Source of the DNA: Patescibacteria group bacterium
Lineage (GTDB): Bacteria > Patescibacteriota > Microgenomatia > Daviesbacterales > UBA10151
NCBI GenBank assembly: GCA_943356485.1
Contig: CALRFD010000006.1
Coordinates: 7,450 to 71,449 of the forward strand
DNA: 64,000 bases
Direction of reading: 5' to 3'
The notes beneath the pieces were generated by a model. It was not told the DNA's origin. It saw only the letters and a list, made by a program, of their open reading frames with translations, and ran no database searches. How positions within the stretch are numbered: the first letter of the stretch is position 1; every line of letters starts with the position of its first letter. Position numbers and translations under genes: made by a program. Positions 4,903 through 58,592 of the stretch are shown here, piece after piece.

Positions 4903-5892
4903 ATGATATCTAAAGAGCAGTTAAACCTTGCGGTAGTGCCGGGTGGGAGTATGGGTCAAGCAATAGCTCTAATCGCTGCTCAAAAGGGTCATAATGTCAG
5001 GGTTTATCGAAGAGCGCATGAAGTTGACACCAGAGAAAGAGTTAATCTTCCTGATAATGTTAAAATATTTTCCTCATTGAAAGACACGGTTACGGGGGTT
5101 GATGTTCTTGTTCTAGCTCCGCCTACTCAAATTTTTGAAGAATTAGCCAGAGAGTCATTGTTTTATTTGAAGCGTGAGAGTTTAATTTTAAGCGCTTCAA
5201 AAGGATTACAAAAAGGAACTAATCATAGGCCCTCACAGATATTGGAAAACTTGGATCAGACTTTGCGGCCAAGAATAGCCGTTATGTCTGGTCCTAATTT
5301 AGCTTCAGGCATTCTAAGAGGTGATGAGACTGGAACGGTAATTGCTGCTTATAATTCTAAAGTTGCTAATTATCTTCGGGATAGGCTTGAAAATCCCAAA
5401 TTTATTATTCAAGCAGAGAAAGACCTTATAGGAGTAGAGTTGGGAGGAGCTTTTAAAAATTTAGTAGCCTTGGCTGCAGGTATGTTTGATGAAATAAATA
5501 TGTCAGCAAACACAAAGGCTTATTATATAACCAAGTTAGTAAGCGAATTAGTTGAAGTTGCCCTAAGGCAAGGTGCTAAAAGTTCAACATTCACCGGGTT
5601 GTCCTGGTTGGGGGATATTTTTTTGTGCACTACAGATAATGAAAGTAGAAACTATAGAGCTGGGGAGTTGTTGGTGAAAAATCCAAGGGCAGCTCAGGGT
5701 TTTTTGTCTGAAGATAAACCATGGTTAGCAGAGGGTGTGCATACTATTGCTCCTGCATACGCTTTGGCAAGAGTGAGCAATATAAATTCTACGCCTATAC
5801 TTGATTTGATTAATAACGCAGTATATACAGAACAAAGTCTTGAGGATGCTATTAATAGATTGGGGAATAATCGAGACTACCATGATTCTTGA
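4903..5892 (+). CDS. gpsA: NAD(P)H-dependent glycerol-3-phosphate dehydrogenase
   Basis: N-terminal Rossmann fold; ELGGAFKNLVALAAGMFDE...GLSWLGDIFLCTTDNESRNYRAG matches GpsA VGGALKNVIAIAAG...GLGDLVLTCTS..SRNRRFG. Confidence 0.75.
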   Translation: MISKEQLNLAVVPGGSMGQAIALIAAQKGHNVRVYRRAHEVDTRERVNLPDNVKIFSSLKDTVTGVDVLVLAPPTQIFEELARESLFYLKRESLILSASKGLQKGTNHRPSQILENLDQTLRPRIAVMSGPNLASGILRGDETGTVIAAYNSKVANYLRDRLENPKFIIQAEKDLIGVELGGAFKNLVALAAGMFDEINMSANTKAYYITKLVSELVEVALRQGAKSSTFTGLSWLGDIFLCTTDNESRNYRAGELLVKNPRAAQGFLSEDKPWLAEGVHTIAPAYALARVSNINSTPILDLINNAVYTEQSLEDAINRLGNNRDYHDS

Positions 5893-5924
5893 CAATGCAG
5901 TCTTGAACATGAGAGTCTTAAATT

Positions 5925-6905
5925 ATGGATCAAGTAAATAAAGCTAAAAATTCTTCACTACCACCAATAGGTCAGTTATTTAAAGAGGCCTGGAATACTT
6001 TTAAACGCAGTCTTTTGCAGTTAATTTTATTAAATATTTTAGGAATGGCAGTTTATTTTTTACTGGCTGCTTTGGCATTTGTTATTTTAGTATTAAGCGG
6101 TTTAGGATCCAGCATCCTGCAAAAAGGCTTAATGGGACTAAGTGCAATTACTCCATTATCCGGCATTATTTTTCTTGCAATAGGAGTTATCTCTTTAATT
6201 ATTGCTGCAGCAGCGCAGATTTGTGCAGTCTTAATTGTTAACGATAAAGCACAAACTAAACTAGTTGAGAAATTTAAAAAAAGCTTTAGTTATATCTGGC
6301 CTTTGTTTTTAATTAACTTAGTGACTGGTTTTTTGACAATAGGAGGGTCTTTTTTATTTGTCATTCCCGGAATACTTTTTATAATGCTTTTTTCCTATGT
6401 GCAATTTGAAGTAATTTTGAATAACCAGTTGGGCTTATCCTCCATAAAGCGCTCTGTTGGAATAATCAGTAAAAATTTTGGTGAGATTTTTATCCGGTAT
6501 TTGCTTCTAATTCTGATCTATTTTGGGATATCGATTGTACTTAGCATTTTTAAAAATATTTTGCCACAGGAATTAAAGTGGTTACCAAATATTATCTCCA
6601 GTATCATTCATATGTTCTGGGGTTGGTTTATGTTAGCCTTTAGTATTGTTTTATATAAACAGTCAAAAAGCGTAACAAGCAATGAGGAGGTCAGTAATAT
6701 TATCTGGATTTGGATAGTAGCTGTCTTAGGCTGGTTGATTGCTTTAAGTTTAACTATTATAACCTGGAAAGTGCTATACCCAGAGGTGTTGAAAGATGTA
6801 GAAACTAAACTTCCGCAAACTGTAATTTTAAACTCAGTAAAAGATTTTCCGTTATCAAGTGAGTCCTCGCCTTCAGCGAATAAAAAAACTTTCGGGAAAA
6901 ACTGA
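5925..6905 (+). CDS. hypothetical polytopic membrane protein
   Basis: 326 aa with ~8 hydrophobic helices; no recognisable family. Confidence 0.5.
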   Translation: MDQVNKAKNSSLPPIGQLFKEAWNTFKRSLLQLILLNILGMAVYFLLAALAFVILVLSGLGSSILQKGLMGLSAITPLSGIIFLAIGVISLIIAAAAQICAVLIVNDKAQTKLVEKFKKSFSYIWPLFLINLVTGFLTIGGSFLFVIPGILFIMLFSYVQFEVILNNQLGLSSIKRSVGIISKNFGEIFIRYLLLILIYFGISIVLSIFKNILPQELKWLPNIISSIIHMFWGWFMLAFSIVLYKQSKSVTSNEEVSNIIWIWIVAVLGWLIALSLTIITWKVLYPEVLKDVETKLPQTVILNSVKDFPLSSESSPSANKKTFGKN

Positions 6906-9647: not shown

Positions 9648-10452
9648 AAATCCAAAGATCAAAATTCAAAAGTCAAAAGTTGAAGAAAAAATTGAAAAAG
9701 CGCTGAAACCTGCTACAGCTAAAAAAGCTACAAATTTGTCTATACCTGCTTTTTCTTTGCTGGGAAAAGCAGATGGGACAATAGATTTGCCAAAGGAGAT
9801 CTTTGGAGTTTTAGTAAATAAAGCATTACTGTCTCAAACAGCCAGGGTTTATCTTAATAATCAAAAAACTATCACTGCTTCAACTAAAACCAGAGGTCAG
9901 GTTGAAGGATCCTCAGCTAAGATTTATGCTCAAAAAGGAACAGGTCGGGCAAGACACGGAAGTGTTAGGGCACCCATTTTTGTAGGTGGTGGTATAGTTT
10001 TTGGTCCAACTCCTCGAAAAGTAATAATGGAGTTACCTAAGAAGATGAAAAAAGCAGCTTTGATTTCTGCTTTATCTGATAAAGCAGCAGAGAAGAAAGT
10101 TTTAGGCTTAACAGGCTTAGATAAGACAACCGGTAAAACAAAAGAGATTGCTAGCCTTTTAACTAAATTATCTGATAAAAAGAAAAAGGAAAGCGTTTTA
10201 ATTTTAACTGATAAAAATACGGATAATGTTTTAAGAGCGGTGAGAAATCTTCCTACGGTGAGTGTCTTCTCGGTTGAGACAATTAATGCCTATGAAGTGC
10301 TGAAACATGATTTATTGCTATTAACAAAAGAGGCAGTTGATAAATTAGGCAAAAGAGAGTCAAGTGGCAAGAATGAAGAGTCAAGTGAAAAAGTAGAAAA
10401 AGCAAAAATAAAAGTAAAAACAAAAACAGGAAAGGAAAGTTCTAGACTCTAG
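9637..10452 (+). CDS. rplD: 50S ribosomal protein L4 with Lys-rich N- and C-terminal extensions
   Basis: Core ...AQKGTGRARHGSVRAPIFVGGG... typical L4; 271 aa versus ~205. Confidence 0.9.
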   Translation: MPVKNPKIKIQKSKVEEKIEKALKPATAKKATNLSIPAFSLLGKADGTIDLPKEIFGVLVNKALLSQTARVYLNNQKTITASTKTRGQVEGSSAKIYAQKGTGRARHGSVRAPIFVGGGIVFGPTPRKVIMELPKKMKKAALISALSDKAAEKKVLGLTGLDKTTGKTKEIASLLTKLSDKKKKESVLILTDKNTDNVLRAVRNLPTVSVFSVETINAYEVLKHDLLLLTKEAVDKLGKRESSGKNEESSEKVEKAKIKVKTKTGKESSRL

Positions 10453-10469
10453 CGACTAGCCACTAATTT

Positions 10470-10934
10470 ATGATTATTCTAAAACGACCGATTATAACTG
10501 AAAAATCAATGAGGCTTGCGTCCGCAGGACTCTATACTTTTGAGGTAGACAAAGACGCTACAAAGCCAATGGTTGCTCGAGCTGTGAAAGATAAATTTAA
10601 TGTGAGCGTTTTAAGCGTAAAAGTTATACGTATAAAGGGTCAAACAAAAACACAAAGAACAGTTCGGAAAAATTATAAAGCTAGTGATATTAAGAAAGCT
10701 TTGATTAAAGTGGGTATTGGTCAAAAAATAGCAATCTTTGAAACTCCAAAAGAAGAAGTAGTAGTTACAACAGCAGAAGGCGAGCCTATAATGCTTCGAG
10801 AAAAGAAAGATCTCTTAGGTAGAACCAAAGTAAAAGTTGAAAGAAGTCCTGCCCGCAATGCTTCGCAACGCGTTGCAGGTGGGGCAGTAGGGGCAGCTCC
10901 GACAACTCAAAGAAAGGTAATAACAGGGAAATAA
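10470..10934 (+). CDS. rplW: 50S ribosomal protein L23 (C-terminally extended)
   Basis: Typical L23 N-terminus; 154 aa versus ~95. Confidence 0.88.
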   Translation: MIILKRPIITEKSMRLASAGLYTFEVDKDATKPMVARAVKDKFNVSVLSVKVIRIKGQTKTQRTVRKNYKASDIKKALIKVGIGQKIAIFETPKEEVVVTTAEGEPIMLREKKDLLGRTKVKVERSPARNASQRVAGGAVGAAPTTQRKVITGK

Positions 10935-13495: not shown

Positions 13496-13798
13496 ATGAA
13501 GAAAAACGAATTTGTGATTATTAAAGGACTTAGTATAAAAGAATTAAAGCAAAAGGCTAAAATTTTTAAAAAAGAAATAGCAGATTTGAATATGGATAAA
13601 AATATGAAGAAACTGAAGGATTTAAAATCCATTGATAAAAAAAGAAAAGACTTAGCTCAGGTTCTAACTGTGTTGAATCAAAAAGAACTTTTAGCAAAAT
13701 TGGAACCGAAAGCAGTGTCAAGTGAAGAGAAAAAAGTGTCAAATAAAAAAGTAGCAAAAATAAAAACAAAAGTAGGAAAGGAGAGTACTAGTCTCTAG
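13496..13798 (+). CDS. rpmC: 50S ribosomal protein L29 with Lys-rich C-terminal extension
   Basis: L29 N-terminal helix; 100 aa versus ~65; the tail and 3' junction duplicate the L4 tail. Confidence 0.8.
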   Translation: MKKNEFVIIKGLSIKELKQKAKIFKKEIADLNMDKNMKKLKDLKSIDKKRKDLAQVLTVLNQKELLAKLEPKAVSSEEKKVSNKKVAKIKTKVGKESTSL

Positions 13799-13823
13799 AC
13801 TCTAGCGACTAGCCACTAACTAT

Positions 13824-14303
13824 ATGACCGGACGAGTAGTATCAATAAAATTAAAAAATACAGCAACTGTTTTAGTCAGCAGAATAGCTATGCATCCTTT
13901 GTACAAAAAGACCTATGTTCGAACTAAAAGATTTTTGGTTGATGATCAAATTGGGGTTAAAGATGGGGATATTGTTGAGATTATAAAATGTAAACCAATA
14001 TCTAGGAATAAGCATTGGAGAATAGTTAAGGTTACCGGTGCAAATTTACAAGAGATAGCAGAAGCTAAACTAAAACAGGCAGCTGCAGAGGTCATCTCTG
14101 AAGCCATGCCGGTAGAGAAAAAAATGACAAGTGTCCCGCCTGTCGGCAGGCAGGTAATGCCAAAGGAAAAAATTTCAGAAAACTCTGAAAAACCGGGAGA
14201 GTCAGAGGATCAGAACGTCAGTGAATCTGATAGTTCTGACAAATCTGATACACAGAGTCATTCTGATAAGAAAAAAACCGGTAAAAAGAAAGAGATAAAA
14301 TAA
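13824..14303 (+). CDS. rpsQ: 30S ribosomal protein S17 with ~70-aa acidic C-terminal extension
   Basis: S17 OB-fold core (...[10 protein letters not shown]...); the tail [25 protein letters not shown]... is homologous at DNA level to the L3 tail. Confidence 0.88.
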
Positions 14304-19307: not shown

Positions 19308-19834
19308 TGCGCAGAATTTTACTTATTGGTCCGCAAGGAAGCGGGAAGTCCACTCAAGCCGACTTACTGTCTCAATTTTTAAATATTCCAAAAATCTCTA
19401 CAGGGGATATTTTCAGAGATCTATCGAAGGAAAATAGTGAGCAGGCTGCAAAAGTAAAAGAGATTTTGGATCAAGGAAGATTGGTCGATGATACTCTAAC
19501 AGCCACAATTGTCAAAAATAGGCTGCAAGAAACAGATTGTCAGAATGGTTTTATAATGGATGGGTATCCAAGAAATATTCATCAGGTGCAGTTGTTCGAC
19601 CCAGGGTTTCAAAAGATAATTTATTTAAAAACCCCCAAAGAAGAATTACTTAAAAGGCTTATGGCAAGAGGTAGGGCGGATGATACAAGGGAGGCAATTA
19701 ACACCAGGTTGGATTTATATTTTAGTCAGACGCAACCCTTGCTAGATTATTATAAAAACCAGGGAATATTAGTGGAAGTTTCGGGAATAGGGGATGTAAG
19801 TCAAATACAAAATGAAATCAAGAAATCGATATGA
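19304..19834 (+). CDS. adk: adenylate kinase (short-lid type)
   Basis: P-loop [18 protein letters not shown]...; 176 aa. Confidence 0.88.
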
Positions 19835-20591
19835 ATTAAATTTAATGAGAAAAAGCGGGGAAATTGCAGCCGCGGCTTTGAAAAAAGCTATGGAATCTAT
19901 TAATATCGGTGTAACTGAGGTAGAAGTTGACAGGGCAGTTGAAAAAGAGATTTATCGACTGGGAGGGGATTTATCATATAAAACAGTTCCCGGGTATAAG
20001 TATGCAACCTGTATAACGGTGAATGAAGAAGTTGTGCATGGCATTCCGACTGAGAGAAAGTTTCAGGCAGGAGATTTAGTATCTGTAGATTTAGCGGTGA
20101 TGTATAAAGGCTGGCATACAGATTGTGCATGGAGTGTGTTAGTAAAGGGTAAAGGGGAAAGCGTTAAGGGGAAAGAATGGGGGGAGAAGAAGAAATTTTT
20201 GGAAGTAGGGCAACAGGCTCTGTGGGATGGAATAACTCAAGCTGTGGAAGGAAATAGAGTTGGGGATATCTCTTTTGCAATTCAGCAAAAAGTAGAAGAA
20301 GAGGGATATAAGGTGGTACATTCCTTAGTAGGTCATGGGGTTGGAAAGAGCTTACATGAAGATCCTGAGATACCGGGTTACGGAAAACCAGGAACAGGCT
20401 TGGTTTTAAAAGAAGGAATGACACTGGCAATAGAGGTCATCTATGCTAAAAGTTCGTCTGAAGTTGTTTTAGCTTCTGATGGTTGGACCTATCTTTCTAG
20501 TGATGGATCTTGGGGAGGGCTTTTTGAAATGAGTGTAATAGTGGGCAAAAAAGAAGCTGAAGTCTTAACCCGCCTGCCAAAGACTGGCTAG
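19812..20591 (+). CDS. map: methionine aminopeptidase type I; last codons (RLPKTG*) contributed by a GC-rich palindromic insert
   Basis: Pita-bread fold motifs (VHGIP, HSLVGHGVG); the 3' end overlaps repeat family A. Confidence 0.9.
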   Translation: MKSRNRYELNLMRKSGEIAAAALKKAMESINIGVTEVEVDRAVEKEIYRLGGDLSYKTVPGYKYATCITVNEEVVHGIPTERKFQAGDLVSVDLAVMYKGWHTDCAWSVLVKGKGESVKGKEWGEKKKFLEVGQQALWDGITQAVEGNRVGDISFAIQQKVEEEGYKVVHSLVGHGVGKSLHEDPEIPGYGKPGTGLVLKEGMTLAIEVIYAKSSSEVVLASDGWTYLSSDGSWGGLFEMSVIVGKKEAEVLTRLPKTG

Positions 20592-20640
20592 CCCGCTTGC
20601 CGAGCAAAGCGAGGCAGCCAGGGGCACTGGCGGGCAGGCA
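20568..20640. repeat. GC-rich palindromic element family A, long copy (CCCGCCTGCCAAAGACTGGC-[36 nt]-CACTGGCGGGCAGGCAG) at the map 3' end
   Basis: The 20-mer CCCGCCTGCCAAAGACTGGC is identical to 56558-56577; the terminal arms are inverted repeats; locally ~70% GC in a ~36% GC genome. Confidence 0.7.
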
Positions 20641-20696
20641 GATTGGAGAAAAATAGGTAATTAGATACGTCTAATTTAGCTTTGTAATTATGGGTT

Positions 20697-33581: not shown

Positions 33582-34289
33582 ATGCAACATTCATTTAGTC
33601 CTAAAAATTTTAGCTCACAGCAGTCACCTACAACTAATGATGAACCTGTGACTATTTCATCCGGAGGAGACCTGCCCGCTAGTGCTTCGCAACAAGCGAT
33701 GCAAGCGGGTTTAGCCAAAAGAGAAGGAATTTTAGAAGAAAGAGAAAGACAAATTGCTGAGAAACAAAGGTTAGTCGAAGAAAAGCTCGAAAGTTTAGAA
33801 AAACTTCGAAGAGACCTGGTAGAAAAATTAGAAAAAGTATCGAAATTTTCGGCGGAGGATGCTAAAAAGATTCTTTTAGAAAATCTGGACAAAGATTTAA
33901 GCGCAGAAATCTCCAAAAAGGTTAGAGAGGCAGAAAATGAAATAAAGTTGCAGGCTGATGATAAAGCAAAGAATATTTTAGCCGATGCAATAATACATGG
34001 AGTTACTGATTATGTTTCTGAATTCACGACTTCAAAAGTTAGACTTCCGGATGAGGATATGAAGGGTAAGATAATTGGAAAAGAAGGTAGAAATGTTCGT
34101 ACTTTTGAACAAGTTACGGGAGTTGACGTGGTAATGGATGATGAGATTCCGGATACTTTAATCCTATCCTCATTTGATCCTATTAGGAGGGAGATTGCTA
34201 AAGTCTCCCTAGAGAGATTAATTGAGGATGGCAGGATTCAACCGCAAAGAATAGAGGAAATCGTTGCAAAAACGCAAAACAGATATTAA
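33582..34289 (+). CDS. rny: ribonuclease Y, N-terminal part (coiled-coil + KH domain); broken from the HD part by a frameshift
   Basis: ...[70 protein letters not shown] matches the RNase Y KH region. Confidence 0.8.
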
Positions 34290-55155: not shown

Positions 55156-56805
55156 ATGAAATGGAAAGTGGCTCCGAAATCTTCTGATGATATTGTAGAA
55201 CAAATATTAATAAATCGTGGAATAAAAACTTTGGAGGAACGTGAAGACTTTTTTAATCCTAAAATATCCGATTATGAAAAAGATATGCAGATACCAGGAA
55301 TTGAAAAAGCATTAGAAAGAATTAAAAAGGCGATAGAAGAAAAAGAGTTAATAATTGTTTTTGGAGATTATGATGTTGATGGGATCTCTGCCTGTGCAAT
55401 TTTATATAAAAGTTTAACTTCAATTGGAGCAAAGGTGCTACCCTATATTCCACACCGGGAAAAAGAAGGTTATGGTTTATCCAGACAAGGATTGGAATTT
55501 GCCAAAAGTTCCGGGGCACAAGTAGTAATCACTGTAGATAATGGAATTGTAGCAATAGAACAAGCAAAATTTGCAAAAACATTAGGGCTGGATTTAATAA
55601 TAACTGATCATCATCTGCCTTTGGATAAACTACCTGAGGCTTATGCCATAGTTCATTCTACCAAAATGTGTGGGGCAGCGGTGGCCTGGTGCTTGATAAA
55701 AGACTCAATAAGTAAAGACCTAGCAAAAGAGCTTCTGCAGTTTGTGGCCATTGCCACAGTTTGTGATTTAATCCCGCTAATTGGTTTAGGAAGAGCGTTT
55801 GTTTTTGAAGGGTTGAAGCTATTAAATAAAACTAAAAATTTAGGGCTAATTGAATTAATAAATGAATCAGGAATAAAAGGAGAGATCGGCTCCTTTGAGA
55901 TAGGGTATATATTAGGACCAAGATTAAATGCGATTGGCAGACTAGAGCATGCCATTGATGCTTTAAGACTGCTTTGTACAAAAGATTTAACCAAAGCCCG
56001 CAAATTAGCAAAAGTTTTATGTGAGGTCAATATCCAGCGGCAAACTCTAACTAAAACTGCCATAGAGGAAGCGAAATTATTAATTTCCAAAGATAAAAAG
56101 ATACATGTTTTATTCAGTAAGGATTGGGCATCAGGGATAATTGGACTAATTGCCGGCAAAATTGCTGAAGAATATTCTAGGCCGACAATTGCCATATCTG
56201 TTGGAGAAACCTTCTCTAAAGGTTCAGCCAGGTCAGTGGCTGGAGTTAATATTGTGGAGCTGATCAGGGAATTTTCTGATATCTTAGTTGACGTAGGTGG
56301 ACATCCGGGTGCAGCGGGATTTTCTATAGAAACAAAACATCTAGCAGTTTTTAAATCCAGAATAGAAAAAAGCGTTTTATCCCTACCGGATGGGGCAGAA
56401 CAGATTTTGGAAGTAGACGCACTAGTTGACACTAATCAATTAAACAAGAGTCTGGTGGAAAGTTTACAAAAATTTCAACCCTTTGGTTTTAAAAATCCCA
56501 GACCAATACTAATAACATATGGGGTAAGAATTTCAGATATAAAAACAGTGGGTCAAGCCCGCCTGCCAAAGACTGGCACTGTCGGGCAGGGCAAGCATTT
56601 AAAATTTAAAGTTTCCCCTCCTGTCATCCTGAGTGGAGCACAGCGAAGCGAAGGATCTATAGATTGTATTGCTTTTAATATGGGTCAACTGCAGGGTAGT
56701 CTGCAAAAAGCTCATGAGATTGATCTGGCATATACTCCAGAAATTGATAGCTATAATGGTTTTGAAAAACTGCAGTTAAAAATTAAAGATATAAAAATTA
56801 AATAA
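55156..56805 (+). CDS. recJ: single-stranded-DNA-specific exonuclease RecJ; carries an in-frame palindromic insert near the C-terminus
   Basis: DHH motifs (VFGDYDVDGISA, ITDHH) and DHHA1 domain; 549 aa. Confidence 0.88.
   Translation: MKWKVAPKSSDDIVEQILINRGIKTLEEREDFFNPKISDYEKDMQIPGIEKALERIKKAIEEKELIIVFGDYDVDGISACAILYKSLTSIGAKVLPYIPHREKEGYGLSRQGLEFAKSSGAQVVITVDNGIVAIEQAKFAKTLGLDLIITDHHLPLDKLPEAYAIVHSTKMCGAAVAWCLIKDSISKDLAKELLQFVAIATVCDLIPLIGLGRAFVFEGLKLLNKTKNLGLIELINESGIKGEIGSFEIGYILGPRLNAIGRLEHAIDALRLLCTKDLTKARKLAKVLCEVNIQRQTLTKTAIEEAKLLISKDKKIHVLFSKDWASGIIGLIAGKIAEEYSRPTIAISVGETFSKGSARSVAGVNIVELIREFSDILVDVGGHPGAAGFSIETKHLAVFKSRIEKSVLSLPDGAEQILEVDALVDTNQLNKSLVESLQKFQPFGFKNPRPILITYGVRISDIKTVGQARLPKTGTVGQGKHLKFKVSPPVILSGAQRSEGSIDCIAFNMGQLQGSLQKAHEIDLAYTPEIDSYNGFEKLQLKIKDIKIK
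56558..56590. repeat. GC-rich palindromic element family A, short copy (CCCGCCTGCCAAAGACTGGCACTGTCGGGCAGG) in-frame inside recJ
   Basis: 20-mer identical to the map 3' end (20568-20587); stem CCTGCC/GGCAGG; encodes ARLPKTGTVGQ. Confidence 0.7.
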
Positions 56806-57356: not shown

Positions 57357-57743
57357 CTAGTTTTTTTCTTTCTTGCCTGTTAGTTCTTCTAGTCTTGATT
57401 GCATATGCTGAGATAGACTAGTTGCAATAACCAATGCTTTTTGTTGTAGCGAATTGTTACTGTGATTAACCATCGCTGTTAGATGGTCTGTTAAAAATCT
57501 TGCTTGTTCCGTTGCATAAGATTCTCTAGTTTCAGCATCTGGATCATATACAGATTGATCTGAGATAGTCCTCTCTCCCCCAGCTCTTCTTGCCATAATA
57601 GCAGAGTAAGCACTTTGTCTGGAAAGCCTGGTAACAGTGCGAGCCCCATACGGTTCTATTTGAGCAAGATCTGTCATTAGCCCATGTAAGGCGTCTACTA
57701 TTTGCATAGGTGCAATTTTTGTTTCTGTTGTCATTTTATTCAC
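57357..57743 (-). CDS. hypothetical protein (~125 aa)
   Basis: Likely start is ATG 57734 (MTTETK...), 9 nt after AAGGAGG; the track lists GTG 57743. Confidence 0.45.
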   Translation of the reverse strand: MNKMTTETKIAPMQIVDALHGLMTDLAQIEPYGARTVTRLSRQSAYSAIMARRAGGERTISDQSVYDPDAETRESYATEQARFLTDHLTAMVNHSNNSLQQKALVIATSLSQHMQSRLEELTGKKEKN

Positions 57744-57750
57744 CTCCTTT

Positions 57751-57838
57751 CATATTTTTTCCATAAAAAAACCTCCCATTTCGGGAGGTCTATTCCTTTC
57801 TCTTTTAGATTTTAATTAATCTAAAAAGACCTCCCTAA
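57751..57838 (-). repeat. 88-bp leader element, copy 1 (identical to 58505-58592): terminator/SD-sequestering hairpin + U7 + AUG mini-uORF, with upstream competing GGGAGG
   Basis: Exact 88/88 match. Minus strand reads UUAGGGAGGUCUUUUUAGAUUAAUUAAAAUCUAAAAGAGAAAGGAAUAGACCUCCCGAAAUGGGAGGUUUUUUUAUGG. Confidence 0.85.
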
Positions 57839-57952: not shown

Positions 57953-58507
57953 TTAAAAACAAGCAAATTGTCTTTCTAAATCTTTAATACTATTTATTCC
58001 AGGGACAACCCTGGGTTGTTTTCCTGTAGCAATTTGTTTAAAAGAAGATAGTGTTTCAGCTGAAGCTCTAATTAAATCTTGAACTAAAGCATCTGTAGAA
58101 AGTGGGTTACTATCACCATTTTCTCTTAATGCATCAATTACTTGTTCCGGTGTTGCTATTAGGCATGGCAGGTTACTAATACGAAATTTTCCAGAGTATC
58201 TTGCTCTATGATGACCATCAATAATAAATAATTGTATATTTTTGTTAGGAATAGCACAGACTAGAATAGGATTTTCATTCAAGTAGTTTATGCCTTGTTG
58301 AGCTAACCTTCGTTCTACCGAGGATCTTTTGCAACCGTCGTATTCCTCTCTAGTTTGAATTCCAAAAAGATGTATTCTTGGAATTAACAATCTAGGTGTC
58401 TTTGATTCTAAACTTTCTTTTAATTTATTCCCCTCTACGAATTGAAAGCTAGAGCAAGATAGCTGTCGTCTATCAATAATAGGTTTTTCCATTTCTAAAT
58501 AATTCAT
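57953..58507 (-). CDS. ParB/sulfiredoxin-fold (ParB-like nuclease domain) protein
   Basis: ...NPILVCAIPNKNIQLFIIDGHHRARYSGK... has the DGHHR-type motif of the ParB/Srx superfamily; 184 aa. Confidence 0.5.
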   Translation of the reverse strand: MNYLEMEKPIIDRRQLSCSSFQFVEGNKLKESLESKTPRLLIPRIHLFGIQTREEYDGCKRSSVERRLAQQGINYLNENPILVCAIPNKNIQLFIIDGHHRARYSGKFRISNLPCLIATPEQVIDALRENGDSNPLSTDALVQDLIRASAETLSSFKQIATGKQPRVVPGINSIKDLERQFACF

Positions 58508-58592
58508 ATTTTTTCCATAAAAAAACCTCCCATTTCGGGAGGTCTATTCCTTTCTCTTTTAGATTTTAATTAATCTAAAAAGACCTCCCTAA
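58505..58592 (-). repeat. 88-bp leader element, copy 2 (identical to 57751-57838); its uORF MEKI* overlaps the ATG of the ParB-like gene (ATGA)
   Basis: Exact duplicate; upstream promoter-like TTGACT-17-TACAAT at ~58700. Confidence 0.85.

Follow-up and report, generated by a model that had tools for sequence, protein, structure and literature searches.

The stretch of DNA analysed here (64 kb, hereafter the window) carries the same short GC-rich palindromic sequence in two unrelated conserved genes, recJ and map (methionine aminopeptidase). We refer to this element as family A. The map gene stands at the end of a ribosomal-protein/secY/adk/map/infA cluster, with infA just downstream, and RecJ homologues place the window in Candidatus Daviesbacteria (Microgenomates), within the candidate phyla radiation (CPR), the kind of lineage suspected in an earlier note on this DNA. 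That note had proposed a selfish palindromic element resembling those of Rickettsia and tolerated in unrelated genes, and both ortholog alignments and copies elsewhere bear the proposal out, with several corrections of detail. What would have refuted it, a lack of additional copies combined with the same residues in orthologues, is not what the alignments and searches gave.

A family A element in recJ and map

The two copies share a 20-mer, CCCGCCTGCCAAAGACTGGC, of which the window has exactly two occurrences, 20569-20588 and 56558-56577; the earlier note had the recJ position right and the map position one base low (20568-20587). No match to the 20-mer, even with three mismatches allowed, was found in 100 dinucleotide-preserving shuffles of the window. 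Both copies continue with ACTG[G/T]CGGGCAGG, directly in recJ and after an internal segment in map, which measures 37 nt rather than the 36 nt first given. The elements have a GC content of 0.70-0.71 against 0.362 for the window, as the earlier estimates of ~70% and ~36% had it.

In the short form, two imperfect, GC-rich arms of 10 nt each (CCCGCCTGCC / GGCGGGCAGG or GTCGGGCAGG) enclose a loop of 13 nt, AAAG-ACTGGC-ACT. The element begins CCCG, ends CAGG, and makes a short imperfect stem-loop in the size range of repetitive extragenic palindromes (REPs, 20-40 bp). The arms are quasi-symmetric, reading CC-CGCC-TGCC on one strand and CC-TGCC-CGCC on the other, and the loop holds a tandem hexamer, ACTGGC-ACTG[G/T]C, the ACTGGC repeat being intrinsic to every copy. 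A hairpin had been expected of both copies; RNA folding supports it for the map copy (-45.1 kcal/mol, z = -3.55) and not for the recJ copy alone (z = -1.1). The element matched no Rfam family (searched at E <= 10, the best matches being miRNA models at E >= 0.44), and at the gathering threshold the whole window returned one tRNA only.

All six frames of the 33-mer are open because it is GC-rich; since 27% of composition-matched shuffles are equally open, we rejected coding adaptation as the reason. One of these frames yields the sortase-like motif LPKTG, which is therefore rightly called accidental. The motif comes without the hydrophobic segment and charged tail of an LPXTG sorting signal: Map ends ...LPKTG*, and the motif is internal in RecJ, a cytoplasmic nuclease.

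Table 1. Features of the window that concern family A and the other GC-rich inserts
Feature	Position	Strand	Remarks
map (methionine aminopeptidase) open reading frame (ORF) as now read	19812..20591	+	PF00557 homologues
Family A long form, 70 nt, near 3' end of map	20569..20638	+	excision restores ortholog consensus; fold -45.1 kcal/mol
5' half of map copy, CCCGCCTGCCAAAGACTGGC, codons RLPKTG	20569..20588	+	identical to 56558-56577
Nested 37-nt hairpin cargo, TAGCCCGCTTGCCGAGCAAAGCGAGGCAGCCAGGGGC	20589..20625	+	separates the ACTGGC and ACTGKC hexamers in the loop of family A
3' half of map copy, ACTGGCGGGCAGG	20626..20638	+	
Relic of native map C-terminus, GAT TGG AGA AAA ATA GGT AAT TAG = DWRKIGN*	20641..20664	+	past the stop, +1 frame
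recJ ORF, 549 aa	55156..56805	+	typical orthologues 524-526 aa
Family A short form, 33 nt, CCCGCCTGCC-AAAGACTGGCACT-GTCGGGCAGG	56558..56590	+	in recJ, encodes ARLPKTGTVGQ
Second, unrelated GC-rich recJ element, SPPVILSGAQRSEGS (GTCATCCTGAG...CGAAGGATC)	56614..56658	+	not family A
Mini-palindrome in rpsQ (S17), GTCCCGCCTGTCGGCAGGCAG (VPPVGRQ)	14133..14153	+	separate family, similar arms

Alignment of Map, RecJ and S17 with 120 relatives each identified the GC-rich segments as insertions, as the earlier note had supposed. In recJ, 118 of 120 orthologues are without the 11 residues, reading ...DIR-TVGQGKHLKF... where the window reads DIK-TVGQ-ARLPKTGTVGQ-GKHLKF; the copy is thus the 33-nt short form that had been described. 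Its removal joins ggtcaag/gcaag (a slash marks the junction here and below), which encodes GQGK and restores the consensus TVGQ/GKHLKF, so the insert is exactly 33 nt and made no target duplication. A second RecJ (P0045, DNA locus L071) carries the element at the identical nucleotide, 32 of its 33 positions being identical. The codons flanking the two inserts differ at many synonymous sites, so there was no recent allele transfer at this site, and each protein has at least eight closer relatives that are free of the insert.

The host codons 5' of the recJ insert (TVGQG) resemble the 3' arm of the element, ACTGTCGGGCAGG, at 9 of 13 positions in the window (ACAGTGGGTCAAG) and 11 of 13 in L071 (ACAGTAGGGCAGG), which is why the protein reads TVGQ-ARLPKTG-TVGQ. 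This repeat could come from microhomology-guided integration; it could equally come from selection for inserts that regenerate the displaced beta-strand.

The recJ insert is a multiple of three and free of stops. An AlphaFold2 model of the window RecJ, built on a 56-sequence alignment, has a mean predicted local distance difference test score (pLDDT) of 84, with three segments below 50. One of these, residues 468-478, is exactly the family A insert, and another, residues 491-499, lies inside the second recJ element; both inserts are placed between beta-strands of the C-terminal OB-fold (oligonucleotide/oligosaccharide-binding) domain. The family A insert therefore behaves in the model as a surface loop, one that is predicted to be disordered. 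The second element marks a hot spot eight codons 3' of family A, where an element is present in 30 of 120 orthologues; the types number at least four (VILSGAQRSEG, VIPANAGI, DPERSEG and SRHPE), and their distribution is patchy.

The map copy has had a different effect on its gene. The commonest Map C-terminus is ...AEVLTDWRK[A/V/I]*; in the window, the 70-nt element stands between GTCTTAA and CAGATTGGAGAAAAATAGGTAATTAG. Once the 70 nt are cut out, the junction GTCTTAA/CAGATTGG encodes V L T D W, as in the consensus of the orthologues, again without target duplication, and the full restored tail reads GTC TTA ACA GAT TGG AGA AAA ATA GGT AAT TAG = VLTDWRKIGN*. The present stop codon is the first three bases of the cargo, TAG at 20589-20591. 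The earlier note was therefore correct that the copy supplies RLPKTG and the stop, and wrong that it lies in frame, 70 not being a multiple of three; the copy truncates map seven codons before its native stop. The insert replaces a 7-residue tail that is dispensable, as many orthologues stop two residues past EVLT. The 70-nt form is made up of the 33-mer and, nested within the loop of the latter, a hairpin of 37 nt. After the map hairpin comes AGATTGGAGAAAAATAGG, with no T-run, and a terminator scan called nothing at the site; by the hairpin and T-run criterion it is not an intrinsic terminator.

The map site is occupied in other genomes as well. L072, whose Map is 82% identical, has a 69-nt insertion at the same nucleotide that is read through as T-RLPKTASLLAESSEAARGTDGQS-DWRKAP; its ~87% identity to the window element points to shared descent followed by drift. 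Decayed or collapsed alleles at the same nucleotide were found in L074 (TTAA/CCTGCCTGCCGAAGACTG...GCA/GATTGG) and L075 (TAA/CCCGCCTGCCGGATACTAATTAG), and L076 holds a true collapsed family A copy, TTAA/CCCGCCTTCGGCGGG. In all five Map alleles the insertion follows TTAA, and the alleles are scattered among insert-free nearest neighbours. Taken together, they read as a series of proliferation and deterioration of the kind described for Rickettsia palindromic elements (RPEs).

Copies in distant phyla and their sites of insertion

In a genome scan for an exact 18-mer, with one genome per species, we found 43 loci, 17 of which, from 13 assemblies, hold the whole element. The remaining 26, which lack the 3' arm, either match by chance, for the most part in genomes rich in GC, or lie within a conserved gene. 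The carriers within the CPR are Woykebacteria (two assemblies), Levybacteria, Paceibacterota, Parcubacteria and Saccharibacteria (three copies in one metagenome-assembled genome, MAG); beyond it they are a member of the Bdellovibrionales (144-kb contig), two low-GC Gammaproteobacteria (one copy inside an EpmA-like gene on a 307-kb contig) and four Desulfobacterota. A stricter pattern returned 27 loci from metagenomes, and the 18-mer had no match in viral contigs, which leaves a phage vehicle without support. A profile search of the retrieved loci (0.57 Mb, cited here by L numbers) revealed diverged copies in the same contigs, at L009:6858-6889 and L020:3960-3992. The 33-mer agrees across phyla at 30-33 of 33 positions, an identity that is in part an effect of ascertainment, because the searches needed exact matches, and that is nonetheless real.

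Long ORFs (200 aa or more) hold 12 of the 33 unique short-form sites, in four of the six frames; the other 21 are outside them. Genes of other genomes that carry a copy include those for GatA, Fpg, TatD-like and EpmA-like proteins. Compared with solved structures, GatA of a gammaproteobacterial MAG has ~23 extra residues at the element, and Fpg of a Saccharibacteria MAG has ~59, which include further GC-rich modules. In the EpmA-like gene (L024 3729-3789) a perfect 14-nt direct repeat, TCATAAATCTAAAA, stands on either side of the element; element and repeat add up to 33 + 14 = 47 nt, which is not a multiple of three, yet the ORF is open on both sides.

Four comparisons of filled and empty sites are free of duplication: recJ, map, L009 and L022. 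In L009 the element fills a palindrome, aatgttcca/cgtggaacaatt, of which an empty copy lies ~100 nt away, and in L022 it fills a REP loop, ggggA/TAAAcccc, whose intact form is ggggATAAAcccc. The element boundaries are constant among copies and are not permuted, and the unit measures 33 nt throughout. The same arms also enclose other cargos (L022:5305-5379, L014:525, L045:5882 and 5993, and a tRNA-Val in L053); that of L022:5305-5379, on a Desulfobacterales contig, is closely similar to the map cargo. Arm pairs more than 130 nt apart, as expected of long-cargo or autonomous versions, were absent from the 0.57 Mb of retrieved loci. The tRNA cluster in L053 (100-240) has tRNA-Val(UAC) directly between family A arms, as CCCGCCTGCC-ATA-tRNA-GCG-GCGGGCAGG, and a complete short-form copy between two tRNA-Leu genes.

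The element often occupies the apex of a larger palindrome (L009, L047/L050/L051/L069, L014/L022/L045, L066 and L057). By a strict score this holds for 5 of 34 sites against 4% of random positions (p = 0.01). In L057 an 87-nt composite of five hairpins, family A among them, occurs twice in inverted orientation at 95% identity (2393-2479 and 5883-5969), each time in intergenic DNA 3' of a plus-strand gene; its predicted fold is multi-branched (-58 kcal/mol, z = -4.7).

We also considered the L057 pair as the ends of a composite transposon and rejected this, as the inverted copies, 3.4 kb apart, enclose ordinary pilin-like, M48 peptidase and DHH genes. In the Bdellovibrionales contig, L009 ~5600-6900 holds a 587-aa O-antigen-ligase-like ORF with many AATGTTCCACGTGGAACATT palindromes (MFHVEQ / NVPRGT); one family A copy sits at the centre of such a palindrome, and the diverged second copy adjoins a half-copy (gtggaac).

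Collectively, these comparisons of sequence show that new sites are filled by an exact copy of the 33-nt unit and that no target-site duplication results. They also show that more hairpins can enter the element's own loop (the 70-nt form in map being an example), and that the element lands in the loops of other palindromes above chance expectation. Copies inside genes persist only where the protein tolerates the insert. Older copies decay or collapse, as at the map alleles of L072, L074, L075 and L076, while fresh copies have the exact consensus. The recurrence of insertions at the same site in non-sister Daviesbacteria reflects either site-preferential insertion or recombination of alleles between populations.

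Other inserts in ribosomal-protein genes and elsewhere in the window

The earlier note had read the GC-rich segment of rpsQ as a collapsed copy of family A. It is a lineage-specific insertion, as supposed: S17 orthologues mostly read ...IAEVMPEEK, while 5 of 120 read AE-AVP[A/V]GRQ-VMPEEK, and at the DNA level GTCCCGCCTGTCGGCAGGCAG matches GCCGTGCCTGTCGGCAGGCAA at the same S17 site in L073. Its assignment to family A had to be rejected, since it belongs to a separate family of 22-nt palindromes, GCCGTGCCTG[C/T]CGGCAGGCAGG, that recurs in L025, L060, L064 and L073 and has only the motif CCTGCC/GGCAGG in common with family A. The 22-nt module GCCGTGCCTGCCGGCAGGCAGG is present at L025:6103, on a gammaproteobacterial contig, and, in L060 and L064, within another hairpin. 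In other lineages the same S17 site hosts other elements (SPEGGQGGP, PSSAEASE and QPEADGPLAQ). The window's mini-palindrome stands between two similar host segments (14093-14177, AMPVEK...VMPKEK), a flanking duplication of ~24-30 nt that is missing from the L073 orthologue.

Several further repeats were seen in the window. The 3' ends of rplC (L3, 9507-9607) and rpsQ (14166-14266) have ~100 nt in common at 81% identity, encoding an acidic, Ser-rich tail (ISENSEK.G..E.QN..ESD.SDKS..QS), and the ends of rplD and rpmC (10410-10465 and 13756-13811) have 56 nt in common at 82%; tail-coding segments thus seem to have been duplicated between ribosomal-protein genes. GC-rich islands at 10845-10904 (in rplW) and 33661-33690 are of a CCTGCCCGCAATGCTTCGCAACGCGTTGCAGG type, encoding ARNASQRVAGG in L23. 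In their first 14 nt they are identical to the outer palindrome (PARNAKHSVA) around family A in the L025 GatA gene, and the islands look like a third family of elements. A perfect 90-nt direct repeat (57749-57838 and 58503-58592) lies at the 5' ends of two minus-strand ORFs, 57357-57743 and 57953-58507, the latter with a ParB-like motif, IIDGHHR. Each copy overlaps the first few codons of its ORF, extends upstream and holds a AAACCTCCC...GGGAGGT hairpin.

How the element may move, and what it resembles

That family A is a mobile insertion element is, in our judgement, very probable. We also think it probable, with somewhat less assurance, that it is a very small non-autonomous mobile hairpin of the REP/RPE kind, with the behaviour set out above. 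The element would move as single-stranded hairpin DNA, mobilised in trans by a Y1 (HUH) transposase of the IS200/RAYT type (RAYT, REP-associated tyrosine transposase), as has been proposed for REPs, and its near-identical consensus in CPR, Bdellovibrionota, Gammaproteobacteria and Desulfobacterota would reflect horizontal spread together with constraint from the mobilising machinery. A Y1 transposase would fit the lack of duplication, the targeting of loops and the REP-like form. Two candidates were found. One PF01797 ORF (L022:5580-6065, 161 aa, E = 1.7e-7) lies ~3 kb from an element copy and between classical GTAG REPs, one of whose loops holds an element with family A arms, the flanking REPs themselves differing from family A in sequence. 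The other (L056:2566-3213, 215 aa, E = 9.7e-11) is likewise ~3 kb from a copy, on a CPR-type contig. In addition, a GTAG-headed REP-like module, GTAGTCCACGAAGTGGTCG, adjoins many Woykebacteria-type copies. That a Y1 transposase is the agent we judge possible, though less likely than not. An IS200 tblastn match in L046/L049/L065 was discarded as spurious, as it overlaps a YchF-like GTPase gene on the opposite strand.

A number of observations weigh against this interpretation. By tblastn there is no transposase gene in the 64-kb window, a Y1 gene is nearby at only 2 of ~35 loci, and the L022 and L056 Y1 proteins are only ~28% identical to each other. Flanking direct repeats occur at four sites (5 nt in L018, 7 nt in L063, 7 nt at L020:3960-3992 and 14 nt in L024), and the Y1 mechanism does not predict them. 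The flanks have no conserved 5' target tetranucleotide (TTAA, CAAG, TCCA, TTCG, GTCG ...), and family A is without the GTAG or CGTC end tag that defines the known REP superfamilies (PMC3733652). Copy number appears low, with two in the 64-kb window and one to three exact matches per species-representative genome. To these are added the ascertainment effect in the cross-phylum identity and a patchy distribution of alleles that is compatible with homologous recombination between populations.

Some of these observations are what the chief rival explanation would predict, namely that the element spreads without an enzyme of its own, through replication and repair (template switching at hairpins, microhomology-guided copying) and through homologous recombination of alleles between co-existing populations. 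The patchy alleles, the variable flanking repeats (0, 5, 7 or 14 nt) and the lack of a transposase in the window would all follow, as would the resemblance of the recJ host flank to the element's 3' arm, where two independent insertions have occurred. At map, L009 and L022, however, the flanks have no similarity to the element ends, and the synonymous divergence between the window and L071 argues against recent allele transfer beside the recJ insert. Priming by microhomology from a circle or tandem array would explain the TVGQ duplication in RecJ, but it predicts permuted boundaries, and these were not observed. Nor does host repair alone explain one consensus in distant phyla. We therefore consider enzyme-free spread unlikely, while regarding it as the main rival.

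A lower probability attaches to the possibility that the element is a recruited functional signal kept by selection, be it a stabiliser of mRNA 3' ends, a terminator, an attenuator between map and infA, or a protein-binding site. The structure at the end of map is very stable and lies just upstream of infA, 21 of the 33 unique sites are outside long ORFs, the 87-nt composite of L057 lies downstream of two genes, and REPs are known in such roles (PMC3733652). Against this stand the missing T-run and terminator call, the missing Rfam match and the gene-internal position of the recJ copy; the map copy, moreover, evolves at about the rate of its surroundings (~87% between the window and L072) and has collapsed in other alleles.

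A translational bypass element, like that of T4 gene 60 or the mitochondrial 'byps' of Magnusiomyces, appears very improbable here. In map the ribosome would hop from ACT GGC, which is followed by TAG and the hairpin, to the ACT GGC 43 nt on and so regain GQADWRKIGN*; in recJ, TVGQ/GKHLKF would be regained by hopping from CAA to CAG. Several features of map would suit such a hop: the hexamers for take-off and landing match, a stop directly follows the take-off codon, the gap holds a strong hairpin, and the native tail is intact in the frame that would be regained. Magnusiomyces bypass elements are, moreover, mobile GC-rich inserts themselves. The same is true of elements of this kind in the case of gene 60 (10.1101/2022.08.31.505936). 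On the other side, the ACTGGC repeat belongs to every copy of family A, the Map tail is dispensable, the TAG is not conserved and the L072 allele reads straight through its 69-nt element, while for the open, 3n-length recJ copy ordinary translation is enough. Ancestral coding sequence or assembly artefact, for which nothing speaks beyond the position within ORFs, is the least credible alternative of all, being refuted by ortholog alignments in which the great majority of sequences, including 118 of 120 RecJ proteins, are without the segments. The segments also have 70% GC in a genome of 36%, and they recur in assemblies made independently by many projects and pipelines.

A more far-reaching version of the mobile-hairpin reading strikes us as improbable as a whole. 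In it, family A and its sister families (such as the S17 and second recJ elements) would spread horizontally across phyla and recurrently home to fixed gene positions and hairpin loops by a single-strand DNA mechanism, building nested, 'Russian-doll' palindromes; they would be shared by ultra-small CPR bacteria and their possible hosts among the Desulfobacterota, Gammaproteobacteria and Bdellovibrionota, and a small subset might be skipped by the ribosome.

CPR (Patescibacteria) genomes are regarded as streamlined, with little mobile DNA. Here, tiny GC-rich inserts of several families occupy recurrent hot spots in genes for ribosomal proteins, repair and translation. Such inserts alter protein length and create spurious motifs such as LPKTG, and they can mislead annotation, alignment and phylogeny; they also offer a natural series for the study of how proteins gain new loops. 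Elements held in common may also record the exchange of DNA by CPR cells with neighbours or hosts. A duplication-free, loop-preferring 33-nt unit in distant phyla, with candidate Y1 transposases on the same contigs, would make the movement of REPs, RPEs and GC clusters testable. In a full-text literature search we found no paper describing such elements in CPR, and family A, which is real and apparently undescribed, is related to the selfish palindromic repeats of Rickettsia and Escherichia coli.

[quoted passage not shown] It shares with IS200/IS605 the lack of target duplication and differs in having no fixed target tetranucleotide and a single hairpin in place of two subterminal ones. In classical MITEs the duplications have a fixed length, whereas family A makes none at four filled/empty pairs and has flanking repeats of 5, 7, 7 and 14 nt at four other sites, and no parent IS with its ends was found in the 0.57 Mb of retrieved loci. 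The GC clusters of yeast mitochondria, with related coding palindromes, are likewise short, palindromic and GC-rich; they spread into AT-rich genomes, where they enter coding regions as well as one another, and no enzyme dedicated to them is known (PMC8811140, PMC6649704). They are organellar and eukaryotic, however, with other sequences, and some are bypassed by the ribosome, for which there is no evidence in family A.

The similarity to REPs is closer. These are imperfect GC-rich palindromes of 20-40 nt found as singles or mosaics, and some are intragenic, in repair genes in particular, at the same site in related species (PMC3733652). The GTAG-headed module beside many family A copies and the Y1_Tnp genes ~3 kb away in two loci recall the REP/RAYT association. 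REP families are species-specific and vertically inherited, whereas the family A consensus crosses phyla, and family A differs further in its apparently low copy number and in the one third of its sites that are intragenic.

RPEs are in-frame, tolerated palindromic inserts that proliferate and then decay (PMC10969869). They are larger (~100-150 bp, with a conserved peptide of ~30-50 aa) than family A (33 nt, or 11 aa; 70 nt with cargo), which is of REP size and smaller by a factor of four, and they are confined to Rickettsia whereas family A occurs in several phyla, a comparison by described traits; nesting in hairpin loops, a trait of family A, is undescribed for RPEs. Both are translated, tolerated palindromic repeats in unrelated housekeeping genes, in small AT-rich genomes of host-dependent bacteria, and the map-site alleles give family A its own series of proliferation and decay. 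As a repeated, in-frame, translated insert in the genes for RecJ, GatA, Fpg and others, family A resembles an RPE, and it is conceptually continuous with REP/RPE biology.

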